Under the pieces are notes generated by a model. The model was given only the letters and a program-made list of their open reading frames with translations. It was not told the origin of the DNA and ran no database searches. 27,082 nucleotides of DNA from an uncultured Planctomycetia bacterium. Lineage in GTDB: Bacteria > Omnitrophota > Gorgyraeia > Duberdicusellales > CBEUCJ01. The DNA lies in contig CAYNIO010000001.1 in the NCBI GenBank assembly GCA_964397495.1, positions 1-27,082 on the forward strand, read 5' to 3'. Below are positions 4,449 through 27,082 of the stretch, piece after piece (positions within the stretch are counted from its first letter, which is position 1; each line of letters begins with the position of its first letter). The position numbers and the translations under genes are program-made.

Positions 4449-4456
4449 CAATTAAA

Positions 4457-8959: not shown

Positions 8960-9011
8960 CTATAAAATGAAAAATTTTATGAATGGATATCTTAAATAGG
9001 AAGGATGTATT

Positions 9012-10097
9012 TTATCCTTCTCCGCGTGAGGCAACTATCAGTCTCTTCAGGTACCCAAACTCCTCCAGGACTTTGCCTGTGCCTAAGGCTACAGCAGTTA
9101 TGGGGTCATCGGCTACAAATACAGGCAGACCCGTCTCTTGTGCTAAGAGTTTATCCAGCCCTCTTAAAAGAGAACCCCCTCCTGCCAAGACTATTCCCCT
9201 CTCAATCAAATCTGCAGCCAACTCTGGAGGAGTCCTTTCTAAAGTAATTTTGGTAGCTTCTATAATTTCCCTTATGGGAGACTCCAAAGCCTCCCTCACC
9301 TCTTGAGAGGTTATCTTTACATGTTTGGGCAGACCCACAATTAAATCTCTCCCCTTAACCTCCATCTCCATCTCTTCCTCCTGAGGGTAGGCTGAACCTA
9401 TTTTTATCTTTATCTCCTCAGCAGTACGTTCGCCTATCATAAGGTTATAGTTTTTCTTCATATATTCAATTATGGCTTCGTCCATCTCGTCTCCGCCTAT
9501 CCTTATAGATTTAGCAAATACTATACCCCCTAGAGAAATGACTGCAATCTCAGTGGTGCCTCCACCGATATCAATAATCATACACCCTGTTGGCTCCTCA
9601 ATGGGAAGACCCACACCTATGGCTCCTGCTAAAGGCTCTTCAATCCAGAAGACGTCTCTGGCACCTGCTTTAAAAGCAGACTCTTTGACTGCGCGCTTCT
9701 CCACCTCGGTTATCCCCGAGGGGATAGCGATTACCATTCTGGGCCTCCCCGAAAACCTTCCAGGATTAACCTTCTTTATAAAATAGCGGAGCATCTTTTC
9801 TGAAATATCAAAATCCGCTATAACTCCGTCTTTCATAGGCCTTATAGCCACAATGCTACCTGGTGTTTTTCCCAGCATACGTTTGGCTTCGGCCCCCACT
9901 GCCAGAACGTTATTGGTTCCCTTCTGTATGGCTACCACTGAAGGCTCGCATAAGGCTATACCTTGGTTCTTAACGTAGATAAGCGTGGTGGCTGTGCCTA
10001 AATCTACGCCTATATCGTTAGAGAAGAGACCTAGAATCTTATCGCTTACTCTAGTGAATCTTTCTTTTAACTGAGAGGTAAGATTTAAAGGCATCAT
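9012..10097 (-). CDS. mreB: Rod shape-determining actin homologue MreB
   Basis: [56 protein letters not shown]. Start could be either of two tandem ATGs (10097 or 10094). Confidence 0.97.
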
Positions 10098-11592: not shown

Positions 11593-12513
11593 TTATAAAT
11601 AAGATTTATTTACAAGGATCTTGCGGAAATCTTCAGGCAAAGGAGACCTAAATTCCATATAATCACTGCTTTGGGGGTGGACAAATCCCAAAAGGTAAGC
11701 GTGCAAACACAATCTAACTCCCTTTTGGGAACGATGATACTTAGGGTCTCCAATTATAGGATGACCTAAAAATTTAAGGTGGACTCTTAACTGGTGGGTT
11801 CTTCCTGTGTAAGGCTCCAATAATAATAGAGTGGCGTGCTTAAATCTTTTCAATACCCTGTAACGGGTAAAGGCAGACTTGGCCTTTACAAATGAAACTT
11901 TGAATTTTGTAGGGTCCTTGCGAGAACGACCTAGAGGAACCTCAATAAACCCTTGGGCGTGTCTAACTACACCCTCCACTAAAGCCAAATACTGCCTCCT
12001 TATCGTATGGAGGGAAAACTGACGCGCCAACTCACTGTGAATATAATCTTCAAAAGCCACAACCATTACGCCTGAAGTATCCCTGTCTAAACGGTGCACA
12101 ATTCCTGGACGTGGAGTATCCATCCTTGAAAGTTTAGGGTACCTATAAAGAAGAGCATTGACTAAAGTCTTGGTCTTATTGGTAGAAGTGGGGTGCACTA
12201 CCAACCCCGAAGGCTTATCTACAACTGCCAAGCAATGGTCTTGGTAGAGTATTCTCAAAGGATACCTCCAGGCAGAGATATTTGAATCAGCCTGAGGAAT
12301 GCAAAGGAGCACCTTTTCTGCGCCTTTAACCTTATAGGAAGGTTTTACCTTGATATTTCCTACACTGACTAAACTCTTAGAGAAAAGATCTTTAATGAAA
12401 GAACGAGAAAATCTTCCCTGCAAGGCCTCAAAGAGCGCCTTGTCCAGCCTCTTGCCCCTATAATTCTTACCAAGAGTTAAGACTATTTTCTGGGATTTAA
12501 GAAAAGATACCAT
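11593..12513 (-). CDS. rluD: RluA/RluD-family 23S rRNA pseudouridine synthase with S4 domain
   Basis: S4-like KRLDKAL, VDKPSGLVVHP, catalytic GIVHRLDRDTSG, TGRTHQLRVH, GDPKY, LHA; follows lspA as is common. Confidence 0.92.
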   Translation of the reverse strand: MVSFLKSQKIVLTLGKNYRGKRLDKALFEALQGRFSRSFIKDLFSKSLVSVGNIKVKPSYKVKGAEKVLLCIPQADSNISAWRYPLRILYQDHCLAVVDKPSGLVVHPTSTNKTKTLVNALLYRYPKLSRMDTPRPGIVHRLDRDTSGVMVVAFEDYIHSELARQFSLHTIRRQYLALVEGVVRHAQGFIEVPLGRSRKDPTKFKVSFVKAKSAFTRYRVLKRFKHATLLLLEPYTGRTHQLRVHLKFLGHPIIGDPKYHRSQKGVRLCLHAYLLGFVHPQSSDYMEFRSPLPEDFRKILVNKSYL

Positions 12514-12926
12514 ACCCCTAAGAGAATTACCCCTGCAGTAATAAAAATGTCGGCAAGGTTAAATACTGGAAGAATCCTTATGTCTATAAAGTCTATCACC
12601 CCCCCATACAGAAACCTATCGCAAAGGTTGGAGAAGGCCCCGCTGATTATGCCCACAAAACCACAATAACCCCACACCCCCAAAGACTTCCTTTCAGAGG
12701 CGAAGCTAATTAATACTATTGCCCCTATAATTAAAGATGTGGCAATCCATACCAGATTAAACCCCCTGCCCAAACCAAAAAGCGTGCCTGTATTCCTTAC
12801 CAGATAGAATCTGAAAAAACCCAGATTTAACCCCTCCTTTAAGGAATTCAGGGCCCAAAATTTTGCAAGGCGGTCTAAAAAGACCAATAAGGATATAAAG
12901 AGGGCATCCTTAAGAAGCCTTCTCAC
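12483..12926 (-). CDS. lspA: Lipoprotein signal peptidase (signal peptidase II)
   Basis: Hydrophobic protein with NTGTLFG, GAFSNLCDR, VIDFID, VFNLAD; GTG start. Confidence 0.92.
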   Translation of the reverse strand: MRRLLKDALFISLLVFLDRLAKFWALNSLKEGLNLGFFRFYLVRNTGTLFGLGRGFNLVWIATSLIIGAIVLISFASERKSLGVWGYCGFVGIISGAFSNLCDRFLYGGVIDFIDIRILPVFNLADIFITAGVILLGVWYLFLNPRK

Positions 12927-13302
12927 GCTTCTCTTGACATTTTTTGCAAAGGAGCGCGTAAGGCAGAACTTTAAGGCGGGATTTGGCTATGGGCTTTTTG
13001 CAATCCATACATATGCCGTAAGTACCTTCCTCTATCCTGTGCAGAGCCTCATCAATAGCCATCAGGACTTCGCGCTCATTGGAAGCAAGTTCAAGATTTA
13101 ACTCCTTCTCAAAATTATCTGAGGCTATATCTGCCATATGCAGGGTATAGGAAGAGAGATTTCCCGAAGCCTCTTTAGAATTTAGGCGCGATTCTTTATT
13201 TATATGGTCAATCTCATCTATGATGTCCTCGCGCATTTTGAGCAAAAGTTTCTTAAATTCCTTCATCTGAGTTTTTGTCATTTTTTTTGCGGATCTGCCC
13301 AT
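12910..13302 (-). CDS. dksA: TraR/DksA-family C4 zinc-finger transcription factor
   Basis: Coiled coil with HMADIASD tip, ALHRIEEGTYGICMDC...CKKC. Start moved to ATG 13302, which follows a strong SD (AAAGGAGGAGAT); the track start at 13350 overlaps ileS. Confidence 0.88.
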   Translation of the reverse strand: MGRSAKKMTKTQMKEFKKLLLKMREDIIDEIDHINKESRLNSKEASGNLSSYTLHMADIASDNFEKELNLELASNEREVLMAIDEALHRIEEGTYGICMDCKKPIAKSRLKVLPYALLCKKCQEKREKAS

Positions 13303-13330
13303 ATCTCCTCCTTTGAAAGAATGCTTATTA

Positions 13331-16108
13331 CTAAAAATCCTTGTCCTCAAGGACTAAGACACACCGTTGGCAAATATCAGGAAAATCTTTATTGTTGCCT
13401 ACAGTAGTTGAATAATTCCAGCACCTTAAACATTTCTTGCCTTGAGCGCGTTCTACAATTATATCCAAAGTCTCAGCCTTTTCAAGTTTAACAGAAGAGA
13501 CGATAAAAATCCACTCTAAATTCGTATTTATATCTCTTAAAAAATTATAAAACCCTAAGGGGGCTTTAATAACAAGGGAAGCCTCCAGAGACGAGCCTAT
13601 CAACCCTTGCTGGCGCTTCTCCTCAAGGGCCTTGGTAACTTGGTCCCTAAATTCAAAAAGAAGTTTATTGTATTTATTTAAAATTTCCTCATTTTTAAAG
13701 ACTGAATCGAGTTCTATCCAGGAACTTAAAAAAACAGAGTCTTCTTTTTCCAAACCCAAGTTTTTAGCCGCCCTGAAAGCCTCTTCAGCGGTGAAACTTA
13801 AAATGGGAGAGAGCACTCTGGTAAAGAATTTTATAAGGTAGTAAAGCACGCTCTGGGCAGAACGCCTGGGCCTGCCTTCCTTTCTTAAAGTGTAAAGTCT
13901 GTCCTTAAGGATATCGAAATAAATATTGCTTAAGTCCACTACGCAGAATTTGTAAATATCTTGATAAACTTTAAAAAAGGCATAATCCTCATAAAAACCC
14001 TCTATCCTCTCAAGAATTTGGCAAAGGCGGGATAAAGCCCATTTGTCTATCTCCAAAAGTTGCCGGTAGTCTAAAACGTCCTGGGGAGAAAAATCATAGA
14101 GATTGCCTAAAATAAATCTCAAGGTATTCCTTATCTTCCTGTAAGACTCTACCACCTGAGAAACAATGTGAGGAGACATCTTGACATCCTGATGGTAGTC
14201 AGAAAAACATGCCCAGAGTCTGAGAATCTCTGCCCCGTAACCTTTTACCACCTCCTGAGGTGAAACTACATTCCCTAAGGATTTGGACATCTTCCTCCCC
14301 TTCTCGTCAACCACAAATCCGTGAGTTAAAACCTCTCTGTAAGGAGGTCCTTTGCCTATGCCTATCGCAGGAATTAAAGAAACCTGAAACCAGCCTCGAT
14401 GCTGGTCCGAGCCTTCAAGATACAAATCTGCGGGGAAACCCAAGTTATTATCGCTCATCAACACTGCGTAAAAACTCGCCCCTGACTCAAACCATACATC
14501 CAAAATATCGCCCTGCTTCCTGAAAGACTTTCCTGAACAATGCTTGCAAGAATAACCTGCAGGCAACAATTCCTCTTCAGTTCTTGAAAAATAGATATCG
14601 CTCCCCTCTTTCTCCACCAAATCTGCTAAATGCAAGATAATCTCCTTCTCTATAATAATTCTTTTGCAGTTTTCGCACCTAAATACAGGAAGAGGCACTC
14701 CCCACAGCCTCTGCCTTGAAAGGCACCAATGAGGACGCAATTCAACCATAGAAGATATACGCTCTTTACCCGATGAGGGAACCCACCTCACCTGCGATAT
14801 GGCTTTTAATACCTTATCTCTTAAATCTTTATGGTCGACATCGAAAAAATATTGGTAGGTAGCGCGAAATATTATAGGGTTTTTGCATCTCCAGCAAAAA
14901 GGATAACTGTGGACAATCTTCTCCTCATAAAGAAGCAAACCCCTCTCCTTAAGTATGGCTATGATGAGGGGGTTAGAAGCATAAACATCTTTCCCTTTCA
15001 GGAGTTGGGGCACATAATCATCGTCTTTAAATCTGCCTTCATCATTTACAGGAACGAGTACCTCAAGGTTATACTTCTTGCCTATCTGGAAATCTTCCTC
15101 TCCATGCCCAGGGGCAATATGTACTATGCCTGTACCCTCCTCGCCAGAGACAAAATCTGCAAGAATTACTCTAGAATCCCTGGAAATAAAGGGGTGTTCA
15201 AGCAAGGCGCCTTCCAAATCTCTGCCTCTAAAATCTTGAATAACTTTATAAGTCTTAAGGGAAAGTTTGTCTAAAAGAGGATGGATTAAATCCCTGGCCA
15301 AAACCATCTTTTTAATCTTTCCTTCCAATTCTACCTCTATAAGGCAATAGGATAAATTGGGATTTACTGCGCAAGCCACATTCCCCAACAAGGTCCAAGG
15401 AGTTGTGGTCCATACTGCAAAATATAAATCCTCTGAAGGCAACCCTGCGGGCATATCCTTAACAGGGAAGAGTATGTATATCGAAGGCGACTCCTTGTCA
15501 TAATATTCCACCTCTGCTTCTGCCAGAGCAGTCTGGCAACTCTTACACCAGTTTACAGGCTTAAGGTCTCTGTAAATATATCCCTCCTGCGCCAAAAGGG
15601 AAAACAACCTCAATACCTGGGCTTCATATTTCCTGTCCAAAGTAAGATAAGGATTCTCCCAATCTGCAAATATTCCCAGCCTTTTAAAATCCTCCCTCTG
15701 AATATTTACAAATTTTAAGGCATAATCTTTAGCCATCTTTCTAAACTCTAAAATCTCAACTTGGGCCTTATCTTTGTTTATCTCCTTAAATAACTGATGT
15801 TCCACAGGGAGACCGTGGCAATCCCAGCCTGGCTTCATATACACTCTAAAGCCCTTAAGAGACTTATACTTAAGAACTATATCCTTTAAGATTTTATTGA
15901 GAGCATGACCTATGTGTATAGGGCCATTGGCATACGGCGGGCCATCGTGAAGGACAAACTTTGGAGAATCCTTATTCTTCTTTAACATCCTCTCGTAGAC
16001 ATACCCCTCTTTCCAGAAGGAAAGAAATTGAGGCTCCTTTTTGCTAAGGTTGGCCTTCATAGAAAAATCGGTCTGGGGAAGATTGAGAGTAGAACGCCAG
16101 TCTTTCAT
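13331..16108 (-). CDS. ileS: Isoleucine--tRNA ligase (bacterial type 1)
   Basis: HDGPPYANGPIHIGH, WDCHGLPVE, WTTTPWT, GTGIVHIAPGHG, WCLSRQRLWG, EGSDQHRGWF, KMSKS, C-terminal CLRC...CQRC. Confidence 0.98.
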   Translation of the reverse strand: MKDWRSTLNLPQTDFSMKANLSKKEPQFLSFWKEGYVYERMLKKNKDSPKFVLHDGPPYANGPIHIGHALNKILKDIVLKYKSLKGFRVYMKPGWDCHGLPVEHQLFKEINKDKAQVEILEFRKMAKDYALKFVNIQREDFKRLGIFADWENPYLTLDRKYEAQVLRLFSLLAQEGYIYRDLKPVNWCKSCQTALAEAEVEYYDKESPSIYILFPVKDMPAGLPSEDLYFAVWTTTPWTLLGNVACAVNPNLSYCLIEVELEGKIKKMVLARDLIHPLLDKLSLKTYKVIQDFRGRDLEGALLEHPFISRDSRVILADFVSGEEGTGIVHIAPGHGEEDFQIGKKYNLEVLVPVNDEGRFKDDDYVPQLLKGKDVYASNPLIIAILKERGLLLYEEKIVHSYPFCWRCKNPIIFRATYQYFFDVDHKDLRDKVLKAISQVRWVPSSGKERISSMVELRPHWCLSRQRLWGVPLPVFRCENCKRIIIEKEIILHLADLVEKEGSDIYFSRTEEELLPAGYSCKHCSGKSFRKQGDILDVWFESGASFYAVLMSDNNLGFPADLYLEGSDQHRGWFQVSLIPAIGIGKGPPYREVLTHGFVVDEKGRKMSKSLGNVVSPQEVVKGYGAEILRLWACFSDYHQDVKMSPHIVSQVVESYRKIRNTLRFILGNLYDFSPQDVLDYRQLLEIDKWALSRLCQILERIEGFYEDYAFFKVYQDIYKFCVVDLSNIYFDILKDRLYTLRKEGRPRRSAQSVLYYLIKFFTRVLSPILSFTAEEAFRAAKNLGLEKEDSVFLSSWIELDSVFKNEEILNKYNKLLFEFRDQVTKALEEKRQQGLIGSSLEASLVIKAPLGFYNFLRDINTNLEWIFIVSSVKLEKAETLDIIVERAQGKKCLRCWNYSTTVGNNKDFPDICQRCVLVLEDKDF

Positions 16109-16971
16109 TAAAGGTACCTTTCTATTATGGGTCTGAGTTTTTTCTTGAGTTTTGGAGGAATAAGGTGTTTAGGTGTTACGATGCTATCCCTCAAGGCATC
16201 CTTGCAACTGCAGGTCCTCTCTTCAGGAATCTTAGGTATGAGCGCCTTGAGTATCTTTTTGGCATTCTTAATATTCTTCAAGAGGTTGTCAACTACCATC
16301 TGGGCAGTAACCTCTTCATGGTGGGGATGCCAACAGTCATAGTCTGTAACTGCAGCCAGAGTAACATAACACATCTCTGCCTCGCGGGCTAACTTTGCCT
16401 CAGCGAGGTTAGTCATACCAATGATATCAAACCCCATCTTCCTGTAGAATTGGGACTCAGCCAAAGTAGAAAATTGAGGACCTTCCATATTTACGTATAC
16501 CCCTCCCATATGCACACCTACTCCTGCCTCCCTACAGGATTCATAGACTATGCTTCTAAGTTCGCTACATACAGGTTGAGAAAATCCTACATGGACCACG
16601 CAGCCCTTTTCTAAGAAGAAACTGCATTGACGCCCAGAATTGGTACGGTCAAAGAACTGGTCAGGGATAACAAAATCCAGAGGCTTCAGTTCCTCCTTTA
16701 AACTACCACAGGCAGAGACAGAAATAATCCTCTCCACACCCAACATCTTAAAGGCGCAGATATTAGCCTGAAAATTTAAACTTGTAGGAGGAATTTTATG
16801 GCCGCGGCCATGACGAGGCAGAAAGGCCAATTTTCTTCCCTCTAATTCTCCAATAACTATACTATCGGATGGCCTGCCAAAAGGAGTATTAACATTTATT
16901 CTGCGTCTTTTCTTAAGGCCCTCTATCTCATAAAGACCACTTCCGCCAATTATACCAATCTTCACCTTCAT
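16108..16971 (-). CDS. mtnP: S-methyl-5'-thioadenosine phosphorylase (MTAP)
   Basis: GIIGGSGLY, LPRHGRGH, VSACGSL, PDQFFD, EGPQFSTLAES, IGMT...EAKLAREA, VTDYDCW. Stop overlaps the ileS start (TAATG). Confidence 0.93.
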   Translation of the reverse strand: MKVKIGIIGGSGLYEIEGLKKRRRINVNTPFGRPSDSIVIGELEGRKLAFLPRHGRGHKIPPTSLNFQANICAFKMLGVERIISVSACGSLKEELKPLDFVIPDQFFDRTNSGRQCSFFLEKGCVVHVGFSQPVCSELRSIVYESCREAGVGVHMGGVYVNMEGPQFSTLAESQFYRKMGFDIIGMTNLAEAKLAREAEMCYVTLAAVTDYDCWHPHHEEVTAQMVVDNLLKNIKNAKKILKALIPKIPEERTCSCKDALRDSIVTPKHLIPPKLKKKLRPIIERYL

Positions 16972-17780
16972 CTCCCCAACCTCCTAGATAATTCTTTAGC
17001 CCTTAAATAAGCCTGCCTTAAGGCCTGCTTGTATATACTCTTAAGAGCATATCTTTCAAAAGTCTTCAGAGCCCTCTCAGTAGTCCCCTTTTTAGAGGCT
17101 ACGCTCTTTATCAATCTTGAAGTATCAAAATCAGAATCCTTCAAAATCTCTAAACTTGCAAGAAAAGTCTGGTAAAGAAGTTTAACACAAATTTCTCTGC
17201 CCAGTCCTAGAGAGCGACCTGCCTCAAGAAGAGATTCGAATACATAAAATATGTAGGCCGGCCCACTCCCTGAAAGGGCGGTAATTTTGTCTACATCTAT
17301 TTCTTTAACCCTAATACATAACCCGAAACTCTTCAAAACACTTAGGGCCATCTTCTCATCATTCGCATTGCAATTCCTGCCCAAAGAGTAAACGCTAGCA
17401 GATTTTCCAATCTTAGTTCCCAGATTAGGCATAACTCTGACTACAGGTTTATCCTTAAGATATTTTTCAAGAAAATTTAAACTTACTCCAGCAGCAATAC
17501 TTATAAAAATTATCCTTCTGGAAGGAAGGTGCTTCCTTATGTCCCCAAGGAGCATTCTTAAATCCTGGGGTTTTACACACAAAATTACTACCCTGCAAGT
17601 CGAAAGTATTTGGTTTACATTTTTAGCAAGAATTACCCTATACCTTTTTTGGCACTGTCTTGCCTTTAGAATATCGGTATCATAACCTATTATTCTAGTC
17701 TTAGAAAAATTGCGCCTTAAGGCGTGGGCAATCGACGAACCCATATTCCCTAAACCTATTATCCCTATAGCATATCTCAT
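16968..17780 (-). CDS. proC: Pyrroline-5-carboxylate reductase
   Basis: GIIGLGNMG, VKPQ, ISIAAG, VRVMPN, TALSGSGPAY, VASKKGTT; SD GAGG 7 nt upstream of the ATG. Confidence 0.95.
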   Translation of the reverse strand: MRYAIGIIGLGNMGSSIAHALRRNFSKTRIIGYDTDILKARQCQKRYRVILAKNVNQILSTCRVVILCVKPQDLRMLLGDIRKHLPSRRIIFISIAAGVSLNFLEKYLKDKPVVRVMPNLGTKIGKSASVYSLGRNCNANDEKMALSVLKSFGLCIRVKEIDVDKITALSGSGPAYIFYVFESLLEAGRSLGLGREICVKLLYQTFLASLEILKDSDFDTSRLIKSVASKKGTTERALKTFERYALKSIYKQALRQAYLRAKELSRRLGR

Positions 17781-17789
17781 TTGAGTGCC

Positions 17790-17873
17790 TCAAAAATCTA
17801 AAAACTCGGTAAGAATATCTGCTAATTTTAAACTATCTGGGCTTTTAATGCAATGGAAAAGTTGCAGCGCTGT
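17790..17873 (-). pseudogene. yggS: Putative remnant of yggS (PLP homeostasis protein)
   Basis: The intergenic frame reads *TALQLFHCIKSPDSLKLADILTEFLDF*, resembling the YggS core motif as I recall it (roughly AVxLFDxIHSVDSLxLAxEI), at the position just upstream of proC where yggS often sits. There is no start codon and it is flanked by stops. It overlaps a promoter-like motif, so the resemblance could be chance. Confidence 0.5.
17825..17853 (-). promoter_or_regulatory. Sigma70-type promoter for proC-mtnP-ileS-dksA-lspA-rluD
   Basis: Minus strand TTGCAT (17853-17848), 17-nt spacer, TAAAAT (17830-17825); about 40 nt of leader with an SD before proC. Confidence 0.6.
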
Positions 17874-17915
17874 TTAAGGGCCCTGCAAACTCTAAGGAAT
17901 ATTAGATTTTAGGCA

Positions 17916-19076
17916 CTAGAGGTATTCCTGATAGAGGGCTTTTAGAAATCTTATCGCCCTGCCCAGTCCTTTGTCTGGTGTTTTTTGGGAAAGGGAAAAA
18001 TTGTATTTAGCACACCCCAAGGAAGACAATTCGTGGGAAGGTGCAGGATTCTGCAAAACAACTAATTCTGCGCCGGGTTCAAACAAAGAACCAAAATACC
18101 TTCTCAAGCCCTTGGTAAGAGCCACCCCGCCGCATAGATAAATATTACTTCTTAAAAAAGACGAAAGGCTATCCTGCTGGAAACAATTTTTAAGGGAACA
18201 AACAAATTCCTTTAAAGGTTCTTCTATAATCTTGGTTATATCTCTAACCTTATAGGAAAGGTAATCATCCCCTATCTTCAGCATTAGTTCTTCATTCTCC
18301 GAAGCATTAAAATCTAAAAAATCTTGGCGTATCCTCTGGCAAAGTTCCAAAGAAACCTCTAAACTCTGGGACATCTTTATATCTAAATCGGCGCCGCCAA
18401 AATCCAGAAGGTATCTTTTAATAATCCTATTATCCCTGAATACTAAAACTTCGGTAAGCTTCTCTCCCATATCAATCAGCACCCCTTCTTTAAAACTTCT
18501 CTCCGCAGCCACATAACTTGCGTAAGACGAACTGAGCAAACCTTTAAGGTCTCTTCCTAGATATTCAAAAAGTTTGCGTAAGTTGTCATAGAAACTTACA
18601 TTGCACAGAAAGAGCATAAATTCTCCGCCCAAACTCCTGGCCCACAAGCCCTGGGGCTCATATATCCTCTGGGACTCATCCACAAGAAAATATTGAGGTA
18701 TGCTTAGAAGGAGTTTCTGATCCCAACTTCTTCCCAGAAGGGAAGACTGTTCCTTAAGATATTCAACATCACGCCTGTTTATAAGTCTCTCTTTTTCAGA
18801 GGTGAGAGCAAACTTAAAAAATGAATTCTTTACAACAATATGCTTACTCTTTAAACAACAAACTAAACTATCTATCTGGAAAGAGGTCTTTTTTTCAGCC
18901 TCAGAAAAAATCTTATCCAAAAATTCTACTAATCCATAAAAATCCTTTACTACGCCCCCATCTATATGGGGAGAACTAAAACTCTCAAGATAGAACATAT
19001 CTGATGGAGTTTTTATTCCACAGAGAGAAATTTTGGAAGAGCCCAACTCCAGACCCCAATACACCCTCTTGCTCAT
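17916..19076 (-). CDS. ftsA: Cell division protein FtsA (divergent)
   Basis: GLELGSSKI, IDGGVVKD, SHS2-like IPQYFLVDE...PQG, LIDMGEKLTEV, FGGADLD, LCGGVAL, C-terminal amphipathic tail RAIRFLKALYQEYL; coupled to ftsQ (ATGA). Confidence 0.85.
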   Translation of the reverse strand: MSKRVYWGLELGSSKISLCGIKTPSDMFYLESFSSPHIDGGVVKDFYGLVEFLDKIFSEAEKKTSFQIDSLVCCLKSKHIVVKNSFFKFALTSEKERLINRRDVEYLKEQSSLLGRSWDQKLLLSIPQYFLVDESQRIYEPQGLWARSLGGEFMLFLCNVSFYDNLRKLFEYLGRDLKGLLSSSYASYVAAERSFKEGVLIDMGEKLTEVLVFRDNRIIKRYLLDFGGADLDIKMSQSLEVSLELCQRIRQDFLDFNASENEELMLKIGDDYLSYKVRDITKIIEEPLKEFVCSLKNCFQQDSLSSFLRSNIYLCGGVALTKGLRRYFGSLFEPGAELVVLQNPAPSHELSSLGCAKYNFSLSQKTPDKGLGRAIRFLKALYQEYL

Positions 19077-19756
19077 TTCTTAAAACTTGTTATAGGGTCT
19101 TGGAAACGCAGGTCTAAAAAAGCCAGGTCGTTCTTATCGATACGCACAAGTATAGTCTGGCAACGCTTAAGGTTCTTTTCTAAATCCTTATAACCTAAAA
19201 TTACCTTTGGGCCTTTTTCTATGTAAAAAGAAAAGTTCACCAAAGAATATATATCTATATACTTTATTTTAAAGGGGAAATCTTGAAGATCTAAAATACG
19301 AAAAAATTCTTTAAGCAACTTCTGCTTAGGCCCAGAAAAATCAAACCCCCTCACCAAAGGCAAACCTGGATGCGGACCTTTTTTAATCCTCTCACCAATC
19401 TTGAAATCCTCCAGAACCTCCCAATAGGAACCCTTGCGGTAAATTTGGAAAAGAGGTTTCTTTAACTTCACCTCTACCAAAACCTTACAGGGAAGAATCT
19501 TCTTTATTCTCTTTATTTTGTATTGAGAAAATTTGCTTCGCAAGGTATCTTCAAGAGAACAAAGATTCAAGGACAAAATCCCTTCTCCAGAAAATCTTAA
19601 ACTTAAAAACTCCTTTATCCTGCGGCAAGGAGGCTGAACTTCAAATTCTTCTACCTTAAGTGCCCGCTCCCTCAAAAATAAAAACCCCGCCCCTAACAGA
19701 ATTAACAAAGCCAATATTGCCAAGGGCAATTTAAAAAATCTTGGTTTCATAGGCAA
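19073..19756 (-). CDS. ftsQ: Cell division protein FtsQ/DivIB
   Basis: Short basic N-terminus, single TM, POTRA-like region (IKRIKKILPCKVLVEV), C-terminal LDLRF motif; lies between ddl and ftsA. Confidence 0.8.
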   Translation of the reverse strand: MPMKPRFFKLPLAILALLILLGAGFLFLRERALKVEEFEVQPPCRRIKEFLSLRFSGEGILSLNLCSLEDTLRSKFSQYKIKRIKKILPCKVLVEVKLKKPLFQIYRKGSYWEVLEDFKIGERIKKGPHPGLPLVRGFDFSGPKQKLLKEFFRILDLQDFPFKIKYIDIYSLVNFSFYIEKGPKVILGYKDLEKNLKRCQTILVRIDKNDLAFLDLRFQDPITSFKK

Positions 19757-20699
19757 GGGGGTCTTTTTTACGCTGAAGAGCTAACTCTAACATTTTTATA
19801 CAGAGGTCAGGGTAGTCTAAACCTGCAAGTTTGCAAGCCTTGGGAAGCAGGCTTGTAGGAGTCAAACCAGGGATGGAATTGGCTTCCAACACATAGATCC
19901 TTTGTTCATCCTGTGCAATCATATCCACACGGGAGAAATCCCGCAGCCCTAAAGCCCTGTGGGTCTTAAGGGCTAATTCCTGGGCATAAGAGGAAAGTTT
20001 CTCGGAGACGCGTGCAGGAACTTCATAAAATGTTCTGCCCGGCGTATATTTACAATAAAAACTGAAACAATCTCCCCCCAGGGGCCTTATGCCTATAGGG
20101 GGAAGTGGCTTTTCCTCAAGTACCCCTACAGTTATCTCTTTGCCCAGAATAAATCTTTCTGCGATGAGGGTTTCATCTAAACTAAAAATATCTTCTGCTG
20201 CTTTTACGAAAGAAACCTCGTCCTCTACAATATGGACGCCTATACTGGAACCCTGACAGGCAGGCTTTAACACCACCCTTCCGGGAAAGGGTTTTCTAAG
20301 TTTATCGGCCCTCCTAAAAATCTTGAACTCCGGCTGAAGAATATTCCTTCTCCTGAGGATATTGCGGGTAAGAGTCTTGTCAAAGGCATTCCTGCTTGGT
20401 TGAGGCCCTGAACCTGTGTAGGGAATATTTATTCTCTCCAGAATCTCCTGCAATCTGCCGTCCTCTCCAAATTCGCCATGCAGACCTATAAATACTAAAT
20501 CTATCTTCCAATTGAATATAACCTTCTTTATGGTAAGGGGGTCTTCTGTCAAAAGGTCTACAGGAATGACCTTTAAACCTTTGCCTTTGAGGGCCTGGTA
20601 TACACCTTTGCCAGTAGATAGAGAAATATCCCTTTCCCTGGACCTTCCACCCATAAATACCCCTATGTTCAGATCCTTCAACCCACGATATCTATGCAT
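19731..20699 (-). CDS. ddl: D-alanine--D-alanine ligase
   Basis: GGRSRERDISL, LHGEFGEDG, PYTGSG, KPACQGSSIGV, CKY, SRVDM, EANSIPGLTPTSLLP. Start moved to ATG 20699, just after the murB stop. Confidence 0.95.
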   Translation of the reverse strand: MHRYRGLKDLNIGVFMGGRSRERDISLSTGKGVYQALKGKGLKVIPVDLLTEDPLTIKKVIFNWKIDLVFIGLHGEFGEDGRLQEILERINIPYTGSGPQPSRNAFDKTLTRNILRRRNILQPEFKIFRRADKLRKPFPGRVVLKPACQGSSIGVHIVEDEVSFVKAAEDIFSLDETLIAERFILGKEITVGVLEEKPLPPIGIRPLGGDCFSFYCKYTPGRTFYEVPARVSEKLSSYAQELALKTHRALGLRDFSRVDMIAQDEQRIYVLEANSIPGLTPTSLLPKACKLAGLDYPDLCIKMLELALQRKKDPLAYETKIF

Positions 20700-20701
20700 A
20701 A

Positions 20702-21538
20702 TTAAGTATAAATTTTTATCTGTGTCTCCAATTCTACAGAAAACTTCTCCTTTACTCTTTCCCTTACCTCCAAAATAAGATTCCAAAAATCCTGAAAACA
20801 GGCTCCAGGTTCCACTTCAAAAAAATTTGCATGTATCCTGCTCACCGAGACCCTGCCCCTGCGCATCCCCTTAAGGCCTGTTCTGTCAATCAAGAATCCC
20901 GCAGGTTTATAACCCGGCGGGTTCTTAAATACGCATCCTAATGTTCGCTTATCCCACGGCTGAGTATTCTTTCTGTAAACCATAATCTCTCCTATCTTCT
21001 CAGCAATATCAGGGGGCTCTTTCCTTTCTATCTTAAGTCTTACCTCTGTAATAACTTCGCCTTCAAACCTGCAACTGCGATGGCCAAAATTCAAATCACG
21101 CCTCGGTATCTCAGAAATCTTCCCTTTCCTGTCTAAGACTTTGATAGAAATAACTCTGTCTTCCATCTTGCCCCAGTGAGTAGAGGCGTTGTTGACAACC
21201 GCCCCTCCTATACTGCCGGGAATGCCAGCAAGAAACTCCAGGCCTGACCAACCTCTTTTCTGGGCCTCCTTAAGAAGAAAGGGTATCTTTAATCCTGCGC
21301 CAACCCTAAGGGTATCGCCTTCACTCTGAATATAGTCTATTTCTATCTTAATGAAGGTATCCTCGAACAATCTATCTGAAAAAAGAATACTTGTAGAAGA
21401 AGAAAAAATCTTTATCTCCCTGCCCTCTTTGCCTGAATTCTCCAAAACCTGCTCCAAAGAAGGAAGGTCTCTCACCCTGTATAAAAATTTTGCCTCTCCA
21501 CCTATACCTACAGGCGAAAAATCCTTAAGAAGCGGCAT
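20702..21538 (-). CDS. murB: UDP-N-acetylenolpyruvoylglucosamine reductase (divergent motifs)
   Basis: GIGGEA, GLEFLAGIPGSIGGA, FGHR, QP...GCVFKNP, HANF, ELETQIK; lies between murC and ddl. See the finding on degenerate motifs. Confidence 0.88.
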   Translation of the reverse strand: MPLLKDFSPVGIGGEAKFLYRVRDLPSLEQVLENSGKEGREIKIFSSSTSILFSDRLFEDTFIKIEIDYIQSEGDTLRVGAGLKIPFLLKEAQKRGWSGLEFLAGIPGSIGGAVVNNASTHWGKMEDRVISIKVLDRKGKISEIPRRDLNFGHRSCRFEGEVITEVRLKIERKEPPDIAEKIGEIMVYRKNTQPWDKRTLGCVFKNPPGYKPAGFLIDRTGLKGMRRGRVSVSRIHANFFEVEPGACFQDFWNLILEVRERVKEKFSVELETQIKIYT

Positions 21539-22907
21539 TCTCTTGCTCCCTTAGCCTCTCTATTAAATCTTCCAAAACCTTATAAATATCGCCTGCACCC
21601 ATACTTACTATTAAATCATTATCCCTTAAAATCTTATCCTTTACAAGTGAATCCGCCATTTGTTCCCTTCTTAAATAAAGAACTTGGGCGTGAGGGTAAG
21701 CCTTCTTTATCTTCTTGAAAAGAATTTGGGAATTTATCCCATCGAGAGGCCTCTCCTGGGCAGAGTAAATGTCTGTTATCACTACCAACCCTGAGAAATT
21801 CCCTAAGCAGTTAACAAAATCTTCAAAAAGTTCTCTTAGTCGAGAATAGCGGTGGGGCTGAAAGAGAAGGACTATCCTTCCCGAATGGATATTTTTCAAA
21901 GCCTCTAAACCTACTTTTATCTCCTGAGGGTGGTGGGCATAATCATCATAAAATCTTTTATTCCCTACCCTTCCCCGAAAATGAAGCCTACGTCTTATGC
22001 CAGGGAACCTTTCCAGGGCTTCTCTTATTCCTGCCACCCCCAGGTCCAAATTCAAACCTACAAATATCGCAGGAAGGCTATTGAGAATATTGTGCAGGCC
22101 CAAGATATTTATACGGAATGTTCCCAGGTCTATGCCCCTGAAATAGCATCTAAAAGAAGAACCCTTGCTGTCCTGATTTAAAGGATGGGCAGTAATATCT
22201 GCATCCTTCCAGCCGTACCAAGAACATTCCAAAGAAAATCCCCTTAACACCTCGTCTTCCTTGCATAAGAGTTTTTTTTGAGAAGAATCTATAAACTTCT
22301 TGAAACTTCTTACCAGTTCCTCAAATTTCCCATAGAAACTTATATGTTCTCTGTCAACATTGGTAACTATTCCCAAATGGGGCCTGAATTCTAAAAAACT
22401 TGAATCACTCTCATCGGTTTCCACCACCACAAGCGGTGATTCCCTATGCCAAGCATAATTCATCTCCCTAATGAAATGGCCTCCCACAAACCCGCAGGTA
22501 TTTATGCCATTTTTTTCAAGGACCCAGGATATTAAACCTGAAGTAGTAGTCTTGCCGTGAGAGCCAGCAACGGCAATAAGTCTCTTATCCTGCACAACCC
22601 AAGATAGGAGTTTAGCCCTTCCCACCAAAGGAATATTTTTTCTCTTTGCCTCTATTAACTCAGGATTATCTTCTTTAATAGCAGAAGAAAAACACACCAA
22701 GTCTATATCTCCCCCTATATTCAGAGGGTTATGTCCTAAATTTACTTTGATATTGCTCTTCTTTAGAAGTGAAGTATTGAAGGATTCCTTTATATCCGAA
22801 CCCTCCACCTTTATCCCCTTGGACTTAAGCAGAAAAGCCAAACCGCTCATCCCTATACCGCCAATACCTACAAGGTATACCTTATTTACCTTAGAAAAAT
22901 CACTCAT
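21525..22907 (-). CDS. murC: UDP-N-acetylmuramate--L-alanine ligase
   Basis: GIGGIGMSGLA, AGSHGKTTT, ETDESD, DDYAHHP, FQPHRYSR, MGAGDI. Confidence 0.96.
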   Translation of the reverse strand: MSDFSKVNKVYLVGIGGIGMSGLAFLLKSKGIKVEGSDIKESFNTSLLKKSNIKVNLGHNPLNIGGDIDLVCFSSAIKEDNPELIEAKRKNIPLVGRAKLLSWVVQDKRLIAVAGSHGKTTTSGLISWVLEKNGINTCGFVGGHFIREMNYAWHRESPLVVVETDESDSSFLEFRPHLGIVTNVDREHISFYGKFEELVRSFKKFIDSSQKKLLCKEDEVLRGFSLECSWYGWKDADITAHPLNQDSKGSSFRCYFRGIDLGTFRINILGLHNILNSLPAIFVGLNLDLGVAGIREALERFPGIRRRLHFRGRVGNKRFYDDYAHHPQEIKVGLEALKNIHSGRIVLLFQPHRYSRLRELFEDFVNCLGNFSGLVVITDIYSAQERPLDGINSQILFKKIKKAYPHAQVLYLRREQMADSLVKDKILRDNDLIVSMGAGDIYKVLEDLIERLREQENAAS

Positions 22908-23029
22908 CGCATTCTGTCTCTCTCTAAAAAATCTTCATCTGCATTTTGGCAGTAAATCAGAGAATGAATGCTTATATAAAACTTAAAACCTGCCTCTGCC
23001 CAAGAAGAATAAAATAAAACCGCCCCCAT
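22904..23029 (-). CDS. Putative 41-aa small ORF or gene remnant filling the murG-murC gap
   Basis: MGAVLFYSSWAEAGFKFYISIHSLIYCQNADEDFLERDRMR*. The ATG overlaps the murG stop (TGATG) and the TGA overlaps the murC start (ATGA). No family recognised. Confidence 0.4.
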   Translation of the reverse strand: MGAVLFYSSWAEAGFKFYISIHSLIYCQNADEDFLERDRMR

Positions 23030-24117
23030 CAAAACTGCTGCTTCAAACATTTCCCAACACCATCCAACAAAAACTTTTGAGGGTCCCTGAATACAATTTT
23101 ACAAGAAGAGCGAGGAACCTGAAAATACTCGTTGTCCAGTCTCTGCTCTATATACTTTAATATGGATTGATGGCTGTGTTTCTCAAGAAAAACCTTAACA
23201 AGACCGCGTCTTTGGAAATAAAGGGCGTTGACTACCTGATGCCTGCCAGCATAAGGATAGGGAATAGCCACAATACCTACCCCTGAAAATAGACCCTCGT
23301 AAAGAGAAAGTATCCCTGCCCGCATCACTGCGAGGCTTGAAGCCCGCCACACTCTCCATATGGACTCGTAAAATCCGAAAACTTTAACTCCTTCTTTCTG
23401 AGAAAACCTCTCAAAGTAAGGAAACTCTTTCCTCCCGCAGATAATAATAAACTGAAAGTCTCTGCCTTTAAAATATTCCTGAGCCTCCAAGAATAAGTTG
23501 TTTATAAATCTTGAGCCCTGTGAACCCCCCATAAAAAGCAAAGTCTTCTTGTAAGGAGCCAGACCCAAAGAAAATCTTGCTTCTTGAGGGGTAGCAGAAT
23601 ACTCTCTAAACTCCTTCCTTAAAGGCAGGGGGCAAATAAATTCTTTACGGGGATGCAGACTCTTTGTCCATTCCTGGACCCCCACTCCCTTTGCCCAGGG
23701 GGCAAGAAATTTATTGGCCTTGCCATAAAGAACATTCTGCTCGTGGAGCAAGAAAGGGATTCTTAAAATTAGACAGATTAATCCTGGCATTAAACAGGGA
23801 TATCCCCCAAAGAGAAAAACAAACTTAGGTCTTATACGGACAAGGTAAAGAAGACTCTGCACGCTTGAAAACAAAAGATATGCCAGACTCCTTAATAAAA
23901 CTCCCGCCGGCTGGTAGCGGAAAAAACCTATATTTATAATTGAACCTTCAAAGTTATCGTCTTTTATAATTTTTAAAAATTCTCTCCTGTTGGTAAGAAA
24001 AAATACCTTACAACCTCTGTCTCTGAAGATGCGGGCATATTCCAACGAAGGGAGAAAATGCCCGAAACTCCCTCCAGAGACAAATACTATCCTCTTATTT
24101 TTTCCTCGCGGCAGCAT
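23029..24117 (-). CDS. murG: Lipid II N-acetylglucosaminyltransferase MurG
   Basis: SGGSFGHFLP, FGGY, HEQN, MGGSQGS, RAG...E, IPYPYAGRHQVVNA; follows ftsW. Confidence 0.92.
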   Translation of the reverse strand: MLPRGKNKRIVFVSGGSFGHFLPSLEYARIFRDRGCKVFFLTNRREFLKIIKDDNFEGSIINIGFFRYQPAGVLLRSLAYLLFSSVQSLLYLVRIRPKFVFLFGGYPCLMPGLICLILRIPFLLHEQNVLYGKANKFLAPWAKGVGVQEWTKSLHPRKEFICPLPLRKEFREYSATPQEARFSLGLAPYKKTLLFMGGSQGSRFINNLFLEAQEYFKGRDFQFIIICGRKEFPYFERFSQKEGVKVFGFYESIWRVWRASSLAVMRAGILSLYEGLFSGVGIVAIPYPYAGRHQVVNALYFQRRGLVKVFLEKHSHQSILKYIEQRLDNEYFQVPRSSCKIVFRDPQKFLLDGVGKCLKQQF

Positions 24118-25180
24118 TAAGAAACAAACTCAAAACTAAACTACAAGATAAATAAGAAGAACCTCCATAACTCAAAAATGGGAGAGGCAACCCTTTAGTA
24201 GGAAGAAGCCCCGCAACCACACCCATATTAAGGATGGCCTGAAATACAATAATCCCCAGACAACCCCAGCCTAAATAGAAACTAAAATCTTCTTTGAGCC
24301 CCCTAAGAAGACTCAGGCAGAGATAAAAAAGGAGAAAGAAAAGGCCGACGACCAAAAAGACGCCTAAAAACCCCAATTCCTCACCCACTACGGCAAGTAT
24401 AAAATCGGTATGCGATGCGGGAAGATAAAAGTGTTTCTGAAGACCTTTTCCCAAACCTCTTCCTAAAAGCCCTCCCCTGCCAAAAGCAATCTGAGCCTGG
24501 GTTATCTGAAAGCCTAAACCTTTAGGATCTTGCCAAGGGTTAACAAAAGCAGTAATTCTGCGTAGACGGTAAGGGGAAGAAAATATGAGCAGGGAAAAAA
24601 TAAAAACCCCTCCTATAAATATAGCCAGAAGATGCTTCGCCCTCATCCCTGCTATGAATAACAAAAATACACCCAAAAAGAGCATAAATACTGCTCCTCC
24701 AAAATCAGGTTCAAGAAGCACTAGGCCTCCGATTATACCTGTAATGAAAAGTGGAGGAAGTATTCCCCTAAAAGTGCTGATGATATTTTTTCTACGTGAT
24801 ATATAATCAGCAAGATATACCACAAGAAATATCTTGGCAAACTCTGAAACCTGAAGATTATACCCTCCCAATCTAAACCACCTCTTAGCTCCACCTACCT
24901 GTCTGCCCCATATGAGCACGCCTACAAGCATAAATAAAGAGATTGCAAGTAGTAATATAGATGATTTCTTTAAATATCTCTGGTTTATTTTAAGGGATGT
25001 GAAAAATAGAACTAAACCCAACGTAAAAAATATTAACTGCCTCTTCAAGAAATATTCACTATCCGCATACACCTTCCAGGCATATATGGAAGAAGAACTG
25101 TATACCATCAGTATCCCCAACAAAGAAAGAAATATATATATAGAAAATATCCCCAATACAATAGGCGTCCTATTCTCCAC
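24095..25180 (-). CDS. ftsW: Cell division SEDS protein FtsW
   Basis: GILMVYSSS, GAKRW, QVSEFAK, EPDFG, YRLRRI, GFQITQ, LPASHTDFI, LPFLSYGGSS. Start moved to GTG 25180, which has an AGGAG SD 5 nt upstream. Confidence 0.94.
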   Translation of the reverse strand: MENRTPIVLGIFSIYIFLSLLGILMVYSSSSIYAWKVYADSEYFLKRQLIFFTLGLVLFFTSLKINQRYLKKSSILLLAISLFMLVGVLIWGRQVGGAKRWFRLGGYNLQVSEFAKIFLVVYLADYISRRKNIISTFRGILPPLFITGIIGGLVLLEPDFGGAVFMLFLGVFLLFIAGMRAKHLLAIFIGGVFIFSLLIFSSPYRLRRITAFVNPWQDPKGLGFQITQAQIAFGRGGLLGRGLGKGLQKHFYLPASHTDFILAVVGEELGFLGVFLVVGLFFLLFYLCLSLLRGLKEDFSFYLGWGCLGIIVFQAILNMGVVAGLLPTKGLPLPFLSYGGSSYLSCSLVLSLFLNAAARKK

Positions 25181-26420
25181 AGAGACTCCTGACAATATCC
25201 TTGAAAACCCTGCCCCTTTCTTTGTAATCAGAGAACATATCAAAAGAGGAACACATGGGTGAAAAAAGCACATCTAAAGAGCCCTGCTTTATGGCCTCCT
25301 CTACCGCCTCCCTTATATCCTTAACCCTCACCACATCTTTTACCCCTTGGAGTGCCTGTTCTAAAAGATGCGCGCTCTCACCAAAAACAATTACCTTCTT
25401 TACCCTTTCTAAAAATAAAGGCTCGCTCCTGAGGCAAGAAAAATCCTGCCCCTTGGACCTGCCCCCACATATGAGGACTAAATCTCTGCGCAAAGTCTTA
25501 AGAGCGAATATTCCTGAAGAGATATTGGTGGATTTTGAATCGTTATAGAAATTCCTGCCCCTGAATCTTAACGCTAATTCCAGCCTGTGCCCTAAGGGGG
25601 GGATGCTTTTCATTAAATCAAGGGTCTTGGCCTCTTCTAAACCCACAATCTTTGCACATTCAAGGATGCTGGAAAAATTCTCATTAAGATAGTTATTCTC
25701 TCTAAAAAAAATTACCTGTGCGCGTAAATCTCTAACACATTCTAGAGAAATTCTATCCTGAGAGTTTATGAGGGCAAAATCTTCCTCTGTTTGGTTTTTG
25801 AAAAGATTAAATTTTGAATTCATATAATCTTGAAAGTCGCCATGCCAATCGAGATGGTCGGGCTTAACATTAAGGAGTATTCCTATGTGGGGGCGGAATT
25901 TATCCGTTCTTTTCAATTGGAAACTGCTTACTTCAAGCACCACCCAAGAGCGAGGCTTCAAATCATCTACCAGGGAAGTAAAAGGAGGGCTGAAATTCCC
26001 CCCTATACAAACCTTGAAATTATTTCCTTTCAATATATGGTAAAGGTAATGCGCAACCGTAGATTTACCGTTAGTTCCAGTAACGGCAATAATGTTGGGG
26101 GTAGGACAAAAGAGAAAACCCAACTCTATCTCATCGATTACAGGAATATTATTCTTGTGAGCATACTCAATAATAGGGCATGACTCCTTTATTCCGGGGC
26201 TGGTAACTATAAGGTCCTGGGCCTGAGCAAACTGGAGAGTATGGACTCCAAACTCAGCGTCCTGCAACCTCTGGAGTATGGAAGAATCACTATCCTGGGG
26301 CTCAGATAAAGAACTCACCTTAACTTTGAACCCCCTGTCAAGAAGCAATTTGCAGGCACTCTTGGCACTCTGGCCAAATCCTAGAACCAAAACCTTATTT
26401 ACCCTCCGCGACAGGCTCAT
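25170..26420 (-). CDS. murD: UDP-N-acetylmuramoyl-L-alanine--D-glutamate ligase
   Basis: VTGTNGKST, LEVSSFQL, PDHLDWH, HRLE, NDSKSTN, FSPMCSSFDMF..Y.ERG. Confidence 0.95.
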   Translation of the reverse strand: MSLSRRVNKVLVLGFGQSAKSACKLLLDRGFKVKVSSLSEPQDSDSSILQRLQDAEFGVHTLQFAQAQDLIVTSPGIKESCPIIEYAHKNNIPVIDEIELGFLFCPTPNIIAVTGTNGKSTVAHYLYHILKGNNFKVCIGGNFSPPFTSLVDDLKPRSWVVLEVSSFQLKRTDKFRPHIGILLNVKPDHLDWHGDFQDYMNSKFNLFKNQTEEDFALINSQDRISLECVRDLRAQVIFFRENNYLNENFSSILECAKIVGLEEAKTLDLMKSIPPLGHRLELALRFRGRNFYNDSKSTNISSGIFALKTLRRDLVLICGGRSKGQDFSCLRSEPLFLERVKKVIVFGESAHLLEQALQGVKDVVRVKDIREAVEEAIKQGSLDVLFSPMCSSFDMFSDYKERGRVFKDIVRSLCGE

Positions 26421-27082
26421 CTTATCTTAAGGGTTGAGAGGGCTATTACTGCTAAAATAGCAGAGATTATCCAGAAGCGCACGATTATCTTGGGCTCTTC
26501 CCACCCACGGGCCTGAAAATGGTGATGCAAGGGGGCAATCTTAAAAATCCTCTTATTAAAAAAATTGAAACTTATAATCTGCAAAATCACAGAAAGTGTC
26601 TCTGCCACAAAAATACCGCCTGCGATGAACAACAACATCTCTTTTCTTATAAGGATGCTCACGCACCCCAACATCCCTCCTAAAGCCAGAGAACCTGTGT
26701 CGCCCAGAAATACCTGGGCAGGGAAGCAGTTATACCAAAGAAATCCTAAGACCGCCCCGAGAAAAGAACTCAAAAATACACTTAATTCTCCTGCACCCTC
26801 TACATAAGGAAGGAAAAGATACCCCGAGAAAAGAAAATGGCCGGTAATATAACTAAGCACACCCAAAACTAGGACTACAAAAAGCATACTGCCTGCGGCC
26901 AACCCATCAAGGCCATCTGTAAGATTGACAGCGTTGGACGAACCCATAACTACCAGCAGAGAAAAGACGATATACCCTACGCCTAAAAAGACGACATCCT
27001 TGGTAAAAGGCAGAGTGAGATAAGGTCCTATTTGAGGATGGTTGTAGGCATAAAGAGCTACTGCTATTCCCACCCCAGCCTG
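26417..27082 (-). CDS. mraY: Phospho-N-acetylmuramoyl-pentapeptide transferase; 5' part lies outside the window
   Basis: The frame is open to the window edge. NAVNLTDGLDGLA, GFLWYN.FPAQVFLGDTGSLALG, APLHHHF, KIIVRFW; stop overlaps the murD start (ATGA). Confidence 0.96.
   Translation of the reverse strand, partial: QAGVGIAVALYAYNHPQIGPYLTLPFTKDVVFLGVGYIVFSLLVVMGSSNAVNLTDGLDGLAAGSMLFVVLVLGVLSYITGHFLFSGYLFLPYVEGAGELSVFLSSFLGAVLGFLWYNCFPAQVFLGDTGSLALGGMLGCVSILIRKEMLLFIAGGIFVAETLSVILQIISFNFFNKRIFKIAPLHHHFQARGWEEPKIIVRFWIISAILAVIALSTLKIR

Follow-up and report, generated by a model that had tools for sequence, protein, structure and literature searches.

A divergent ftsA with an empty ftsZ slot: probable ancient loss of ftsZ in a relative of Candidatus Omnitrophota

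The dcw cluster analysed here ends at a divergent ftsA, and the slot that ftsZ would occupy is an empty spacer of 135 bp. We consider it probable (roughly three chances in four) that the window, by which we mean the whole 27,082-nt stretch of DNA, derives from a deep-branching member or relative of Omnitrophota in which ftsZ was lost long ago, the ftsA-proC junction is native and FtsA has been retained in an FtsZ-independent divisome. Nearly all bacteria have FtsZ, for which FtsA is regarded as the membrane tether.

The dcw cluster closes with ftsA

Every sizeable ORF in the ORF list of the window lies on the minus strand. On this strand the gene order is mraY-murD-ftsW-murG-murC-murB-ddl-ftsQ-ftsA, the 135-bp spacer, and then proC-mtnP-ileS-dksA/yteA-like-lspA-rluD. 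The window holds a complete, compact dcw cluster running from mraY to ftsA. Pfam matches identify mraY (26417-27073, truncated at the window end), murD (25170-26420), ftsW (24095-25273, which also scores above the TIGR02614 cut-off), murG (23029-24117), murC (21525-22907), murB (20702-21538) and ddl (19731-20786). They are followed by a divergent ftsQ of 227 codons (19073-19756), recognised by hhalign comparison with Omnitrophota FtsQ, and a divergent ftsA of 386 codons (17916-19076), recognised by PF02491, by TIGR01174 as its best family and by an AF2 model searched with Foldseek. Taken from their longest-ORF starts, ddl (19731-20786, start TTG) and ftsW (24095-25273) run 85 and 104 bp into the genes before them (20702-21538 and 25170-26420, respectively). 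Since alignments with homologues begin about 24-40 residues in, the true starts of both genes are probably further downstream.

The position of ftsA is canonical: it lies directly downstream of ftsQ, its start overlapping the ftsQ stop by 4 bp, and closes the cluster. Its TAG stop corresponds to 17916-17918 on the reverse complement, and the ATG of proC to 17778-17780, so that the ORF ends leave a gene-free interval at 17781-17915. Next comes proC, encoding pyrroline-5-carboxylate reductase (16968-17780; TIGR00112 with 218 bits against a cut-off of 196.75, and Pfam P5CR_dimer). The original prediction had described ftsQ-ftsA followed by only 135 bp and then proC, and both the ORF coordinates and the Pfam and NCBIfam identities bear this out. 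From mraY to ftsA the order is that of the canonical dcw clusters of E. coli, B. subtilis and Verrucomicrobium spinosum. In contrast to the canonical ftsQ-ftsA-ftsZ arrangement, the window has the spacer and proC after ftsA.

Beyond proC, Pfam and NCBIfam matches identify mtnP (MTAP, 16108-16971) and ileS (13331-16108), which together with a dksA/yteA-like zinc-finger gene, lspA and rluD fill positions 11593-16971. After rluD come aroA and then mreB (9012-10097; Pfam MreB_Mbl, 2.3e-148), the PBP2 gene mrdA (7253-8959; Pfam Transpeptidase and PBP_dimer domains) and rodA (6178-7263; above the TIGR02210 cut-off). These last three genes are contiguous (6178-10097, minus strand), and the 52-bp gap between mreB and the PBP2 gene leaves no room for mreC and mreD, whose usual position is between them. 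The genes after rodA are a B12/radical-SAM gene, a gene for a MshEN protein and two PilB/T2SSE ATPase genes. The tandem ATPases (565 and 568 aa; 578-4451, minus strand) each carry a MshEN domain, and the protein that precedes them is a stand-alone MshEN protein of 158 aa, of the cyclic-di-GMP-binding type. Together they may be related to the pilus systems described for Omnitrophota.

Affiliation of the window

In a scan with one genome per GTDB species, the best matches of IleRS, at 50-53% identity, were to Candidatus Omnitrophota MAGs and a SAG, and there was no close relative. Two further IleRS matches, with equally good scores, carry the label 'uncultured Planctomycetia'; L005, one of the two, has the Omnitrophota gene order. 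A search of a 5.8-billion-protein collection with PBP2 gave a similar picture: the best 120 matches are at most 42% identical, and all named ones among them are from Omnitrophota/Omnitrophica, including 'Ca. Gygaella obscura', which NCBI taxonomy assigns to the phylum Omnitrophota. The order proC-mtnP-ileS is common to the window and the Omnitrophota loci L002, L004, L005, L007, L010 and L064. Judged from the IleRS and PBP2 best matches (42-53%) and from gene order, the window thus probably represents a deep branch in or next to Candidatus Omnitrophota. It shares with the FtsZ-less Omnitrophota a dcw cluster having ftsQ-ftsA without ftsZ, the proC-mtnP-ileS neighbourhood and its best protein matches. 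It differs from them in that no Omnitrophota sequence is more than about 53% (IleRS) or 42% (PBP2) identical to its proteins, in that its FtsA falls in a small, very divergent clade, and in the lack of yggS between ftsA and proC.

The ileS neighbourhood has a wider distribution. The order ileS, yteA/dksA-like zinc-finger gene, lspA, rluD (11593-16108, minus strand) resembles the B. subtilis order, ileS-ylyA-lspA-rluD. Moreover, yggS is found no more than 5 kb upstream of ileS in a range of loci (L016, L018, L021, L024, L026, L036, L037 and L049) that represent many phyla, and five of these loci have proC between the two genes. This suggests that the ileS neighbourhood is very old and that the dcw cluster abuts into it.

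FtsZ in the window, in relatives and in published surveys

A six-frame scan of the window detected no tubulin signature of the GGGTG[ST]G type, and GGGxG strings are confined to stop-ridden frames. When the window was searched by tblastn with E. coli FtsZ (E < 100), the best hit had an E-value of 5.6 and only noise was returned. Validated against the PDB, the same query recovered E. coli FtsZ over 383 of 383 residues with 808 bits and archaeal FtsZ at 1e-84. Any ordinary FtsZ in the window would have been picked up. The earlier statement that no GGGTGTG signature occurs in any ORF of the window is borne out by the six-frame scan, and on the strength of both searches an ftsZ relic, whether in the spacer or in the rest of the window, was rejected. 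At the left window end, a partial ORF encodes a response-regulator/HD-type protein and not FtsZ. Exact-protein look-ups with MurD and the terminal T2SS ATPase, made to extend the contig ends, had no matches on record.

Relatives of the window show the same vacancy. No ftsZ follows ftsA in any of ten related arrangements, comprising six Omnitrophota loci, three close relatives of the window FtsA within a dcw cluster and one outside such a cluster. Two of the Omnitrophota loci (L004, in which ftsA is confirmed by Pfam, and L005) have the order murB-ddl-ftsQ-ftsA-proC-mtnP-ileS with ftsA abutting proC. In three others (L010, L017 and L064) the order is ftsA-(PilZ)-yggS-proC-mtnP-ileS, the PilZ gene being present in L064 and the gene between ftsA and proC encoding a 216-241-aa Ala_racemase_N protein of the YggS/YlmE type. 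In L085 (GCA_043817895.1), a gene for an AhpC-type peroxiredoxin is next after ftsA.

The clade to which the window FtsA belongs is small and divergent. It includes P0004-P0006, at 33-40% identity, and the window FtsA is at most 40% identical to anything in the libraries searched; a metagenome locus search with a four-sequence FtsA alignment yielded two loci. In the locus encoding P0004 (L082), rpsB is next after ftsA. P0006 closes a complete murE-murF-mraY-murD-ftsW-murG-murC-murB-ddl-ftsQ-ftsA cluster, and an AddA/AddB-like pair comes next, in the same way in five independent assemblies. In this lineage (L084/L086, 11170-17084) the pair, a UvrD-helicase and a PD-(D/E)XK nuclease, starts 2 bp past the ftsA stop codon. 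P0005 (L091, 7633-8811; 36% identical to the window FtsA) is encoded outside a dcw cluster, after genes for a glycosyltransferase, an ATP-grasp enzyme and a methyltransferase, a hint that FtsA proteins of this divergent clade can occur apart from genes for the cell wall. Searches by tblastn with E. coli FtsZ were negative for loci L001-L083, even with a permissive limit of E < 10, and for all 92 sequences, L084-L091 and the window among them, at E < 1e-4.

An ftsA at the cluster end, with variable downstream neighbours and without ftsZ, is thus the normal state of this lineage. Since the slot is empty in every relative examined, the absence of ftsZ is not a recent deletion private to this genome. 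As to the proposed comparison of the ftsA-proC interval in close relatives, none of the relatives examined has ftsZ after ftsA, and ftsA directly adjoins proC in the distant relatives L004 and L005. The original prediction of a deletion of ftsZ accordingly stands as an ancient, lineage-wide loss, in keeping with all ten relatives and with the literature on the phylum, and fails as an event particular to this genome. It had also suggested the loss of neighbouring genes; here yggS is missing from the position between ftsA and proC that it holds in three Omnitrophota relatives.

Published surveys place the phylum among those without FtsZ. In Omnitrophota, ftsZ was reported to be absent phylum-wide while ftsA is kept (Seymour 2023, PMC10066038, Supplementary Note 1). 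The one ftsZ occurrence in that survey is 89% identical to an archaeal protein (Seymour 2023, PMC10066038), which indicates contamination or recent transfer. According to the same Supplementary Note 1 (PMC10066038), ftsY is missing lineage-wide in Omnitrophota, and ribosomal protein L30 is missing too. Omnitrophica are likewise listed among the FtsZ-less phyla in a figure legend of Pende 2021 (PMC8178401). The supplementary table of that study, whose columns are FtsZ, SepF and FtsA (the order was checked on the B. subtilis row), records FtsA without FtsZ in three of five Omnitrophica genomes, namely, Ca. Omnitrophus magneticus, RIFOXYB12_FULL_50_7 and WOR_2 SM23_29. GWA2_41_15 has neither protein, and 'Omnitrophica bacterium OLB16', with both FtsA and FtsZ, is the sole FtsZ-positive genome of the five (Pende 2021, PMC8178401). 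By contrast, FtsZ is attributed to Omnitrophica in reviews from another group, the earlier of which rest explicitly on OLB16. A 2025 paper groups Omnitrophota with phyla conserving dcw genes, a 2025 review names Planctomycetes as the only free-living bacteria dividing without FtsZ, and the supplements of a 2025 iScience paper on PVC dcw genes contain no Omnitrophota rows. However, OLB16 (taxid 1617433) is now Candidatus Hinthialibacteria bacterium OLB16 in NCBI taxonomy, in the phylum Candidatus Hinthialibacterota. With its move to another phylum, the only FtsZ-positive 'Omnitrophica' genome drops out, and the conflicting reports are reconciled.

These data bear on the possibility, raised in the original prediction, that ftsZ is present in the genome and has moved outside the 27-kb window. 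The window is one contig only, the predicted fold and membrane helix of its FtsA are intact, which in other bacteria implies an FtsZ partner, and one group's reviews list Omnitrophica/Omnitrophota as FtsZ-containing. Nevertheless, two independent surveys found no genuine ftsZ in Omnitrophota genomes, the FtsZ-positive OLB16 is now placed elsewhere, and the fetched flanks of about ten related loci contain no ftsZ. Relocation is thus unlikely: nothing that we found for the window, and nothing published, supports it. The premise that the role of FtsA is tied to FtsZ is itself contradicted by Omnitrophota, where FtsA is kept without it.

A divergent FtsA with a predicted FtsA fold

FtsA is the top-scoring family for the ORF at 17916-19076 in both Pfam and NCBIfam. 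The SHS2_FTSA domain (PF02491) scores 28.6 bits, above its cut-off of 25.4, while PF14450 reaches 24.9 bits (cut-off 31.8) and TIGR01174 (ftsA), the best NCBIfam match, 100.3 bits (cut-off 175.85). Sequence matches in the PDB are to FtsA proteins only. An AF2 model built on a 55-sequence alignment has a pLDDT of 93.6 and a pTM of 0.88. When this model was compared with the PDB using Foldseek, ranks 1-19 were all FtsA (TM 0.72-0.83; from S. aureus, E. coli, Vibrio, Xenorhabdus and T. maritima), followed by PilM at about 0.6 and MreB at about 0.55. A PilM or MreB identity was rejected on this margin. The model is actin-like in fold and has, at the place of 1B, the 1C (SHS2) subdomain specific to FtsA. 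The protein is thus a weak but specific match by sequence, very divergent, with an FtsA fold that is predicted with confidence.

The C-terminus of the protein is predicted to form a helix at residues 369-385 (...GRAIRFLKALYQEYL). This helix is amphipathic, with a muH of 0.59 that is reached or exceeded by 35 of 2000 shuffles, and its LYQEY[FL] tail is conserved across the 55 homologues. It is predicted to be the membrane-targeting sequence expected of an FtsA. Among the nucleotide-binding motifs, phosphate 2 (DxGxxT; D202, G204, T208) and the adenosine GG motif (G316) are conserved. In phosphate 1 (DxG), the window FtsA has Glu10 (19047-19049) where at least 90% of the 55 homologues have Asp. 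The phosphate-1 and adenosine motifs of P0005 are more degenerate than those of the window FtsA. Subdomain 2B is the part of FtsA that engages the C-terminal peptide of FtsZ, and this lineage has no known FtsZ partner.

FtsQ and the rate of divergence

The ORF at 19073-19756 has no Pfam or NCBIfam match to the FtsQ/DivIB domains (PF08478 POTRA_1 and PF03799). Aligned with six Omnitrophota FtsQ proteins, it gives an hhalign probability of 99.8% (E 2.4e-28), and orthologues of the window FtsQ, including that of L086, have weak matches to PF03799 (FtsQ_DivIB_C).

Pairwise identities among the Omnitrophota loci L004, L010, L017 and L064 and the window are 19-34% for FtsA, 21-32% for FtsQ, 32-43% for ProC, 41-51% for Ddl, 48-55% for IleRS and 55-65% for MTAP. 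FtsA is therefore the least conserved and fastest-evolving protein of the neighbourhood across these pairs. Between the window and the P0006 lineage, identity falls from 66% for MraY through 56% for Ddl and 50% for FtsW to 33% for both FtsQ and FtsA. Where bacteria have FtsZ, conservation is usually clearly higher for FtsA than for FtsQ. The fast divergence of FtsA would fit a changed constraint once its FtsZ partner had been lost.

The same divergence could be read differently, with the 'ftsA' no longer being a division gene and representing either a relic in decay or an actin-like protein (PilM-like or other) put to a new use. Several features point that way, namely, the scores below the curated TIGR01174 and PF14450 cut-offs, the replacement of Asp10 by Glu, the highest rate of change in the neighbourhood, and the clade member P0005, encoded away from any dcw cluster and with degenerate motifs for nucleotide binding. 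We give this possibility only a slim chance, considering that the ORF is intact in all relatives, that the confidently predicted FtsA-specific fold with its 1C domain is clearly separated from PilM and MreB, that the amphipathic C-terminal tail is conserved, and that the gene holds its canonical place overlapping ftsQ.

The ftsA-proC spacer

The junction is carried by an independent assembly. The ENA contig ERZ27248458 k141_450539 (3280 bp) spans ftsQ-ftsA-spacer-proC-mtnP and aligns with the window over 3280 of 3280 bp with two mismatches and no gap (99.94% identity), including the same 135-bp spacer and an exact copy of the FtsA-like protein. The window contains no Ns, and there is no composition break at the ftsA-proC junction. 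Because an independent assembly carries the same junction, a collapsed or misassembled segment at 17781-17915, which the original prediction had named as a possible source of error, is excluded. That the junction is a collapsed or chimeric join or a very recent strain-private deletion is thus very improbable, given this gapless contig, the ftsA-proC adjacency in the distant relatives L004 and L005 and the even composition.

Within the spacer, neither a sigma-70 promoter nor a terminator consensus was found. A Shine-Dalgarno-like GAGG for proC lies 7 nt before the ATG. A weak 11-nt inverted repeat (17784-17794 and 17907-17917; 91% complementary) brackets the whole spacer and includes the GAGG preceding the proC start codon. 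G-U pairs lengthen it in the RNA fold, and the fold of the spacer has a z-score of -2.3. The rest of the window has no further copy of the repeat. We considered and rejected the idea that the spacer harbours a regulatory or mobile element: there is no promoter or terminator consensus, and the short inverted repeat was taken as unremarkable.

Discussion

The best-supported reading is an ancient loss of ftsZ throughout the lineage. The present analysis provides the junction, its conservation, the lineage assignment and the FtsA fold, and the literature provides the phylum-wide absence of the gene; the division mechanism is what we infer. With ftsZ lost long ago, the ending of the dcw cluster at ftsQ-ftsA and the ftsA-proC junction would be inherited gene order, and FtsA would have been kept as an intact, membrane-targetable actin-like protein beside FtsQ, FtsW and the Mur enzymes. 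On the membrane, polymers of FtsA might then form the cytoplasmic scaffold of an FtsZ-independent divisome, in which the 1C domain of FtsA would recruit FtsQ and the FtsW septal peptidoglycan synthase. Positioning or treadmilling, normally the job of FtsZ, could be provided by MreB/PBP2/RodA, as in Chlamydia, or by FtsA itself. That FtsA serves FtsQ and the FtsW-type synthase as a scaffold, and that MreB/PBP2/RodA or FtsA filaments exert spatial control, is a tentative proposal, to which we give somewhat less than even odds. The mreB, PBP2 and rodA genes of the window are candidates for a partner or substitute system in FtsZ-less division.

Two other FtsZ-less lineages offer points of comparison. 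Division in Chlamydiota is FtsZ-independent and MreB-dependent. Like the window, as known from the genes within its 27 kb, Chlamydiota have no FtsZ and retain peptidoglycan precursor genes, FtsQ, FtsW and MreB/PBP2/RodA. Unlike the window, they have lost FtsA too, and no sign of an MreB takeover of division was seen in the window. Planctomycetota are also a PVC lineage without ftsZ; however, most of them lack ftsA as well and many have eroded mur and dcw genes, whereas the dcw cluster of the window is complete and compact.

The absence of ftsZ at the level of the phylum was already known, being published in a supplementary note and a figure legend, and is contradicted by recent reviews. What the window adds is of modest value: a very divergent FtsA/FtsQ pair, and an empty ftsZ slot that is inherited and not an error. 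A small clarification is the tracing of the literature conflict over FtsZ in Omnitrophota to the reclassified genome OLB16, on which the earlier reviews were based.

The biology of FtsA without FtsZ is under-studied. A phylum that makes peptidoglycan and has FtsA, FtsQ and FtsW in a compact dcw cluster, but lacks FtsZ, offers a natural experiment in what FtsA can do by itself, and it is relevant to how a divisome finds its position when there is no Z-ring. It is possible, at a little under an even chance in our judgement, that Omnitrophota, including this lineage, divide by an FtsA-based, FtsZ-free divisome in which FtsA organises septal peptidoglycan synthesis, and that this represents a third kind of FtsZ-independent division. 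If so, it would be distinct from the MreB-driven division of Chlamydiota, which have no FtsA, and from that of Planctomycetota, which mostly have none, and the fast-evolving FtsA of Omnitrophota would be an FtsA freed from its tubulin partner and re-adapted after the loss.
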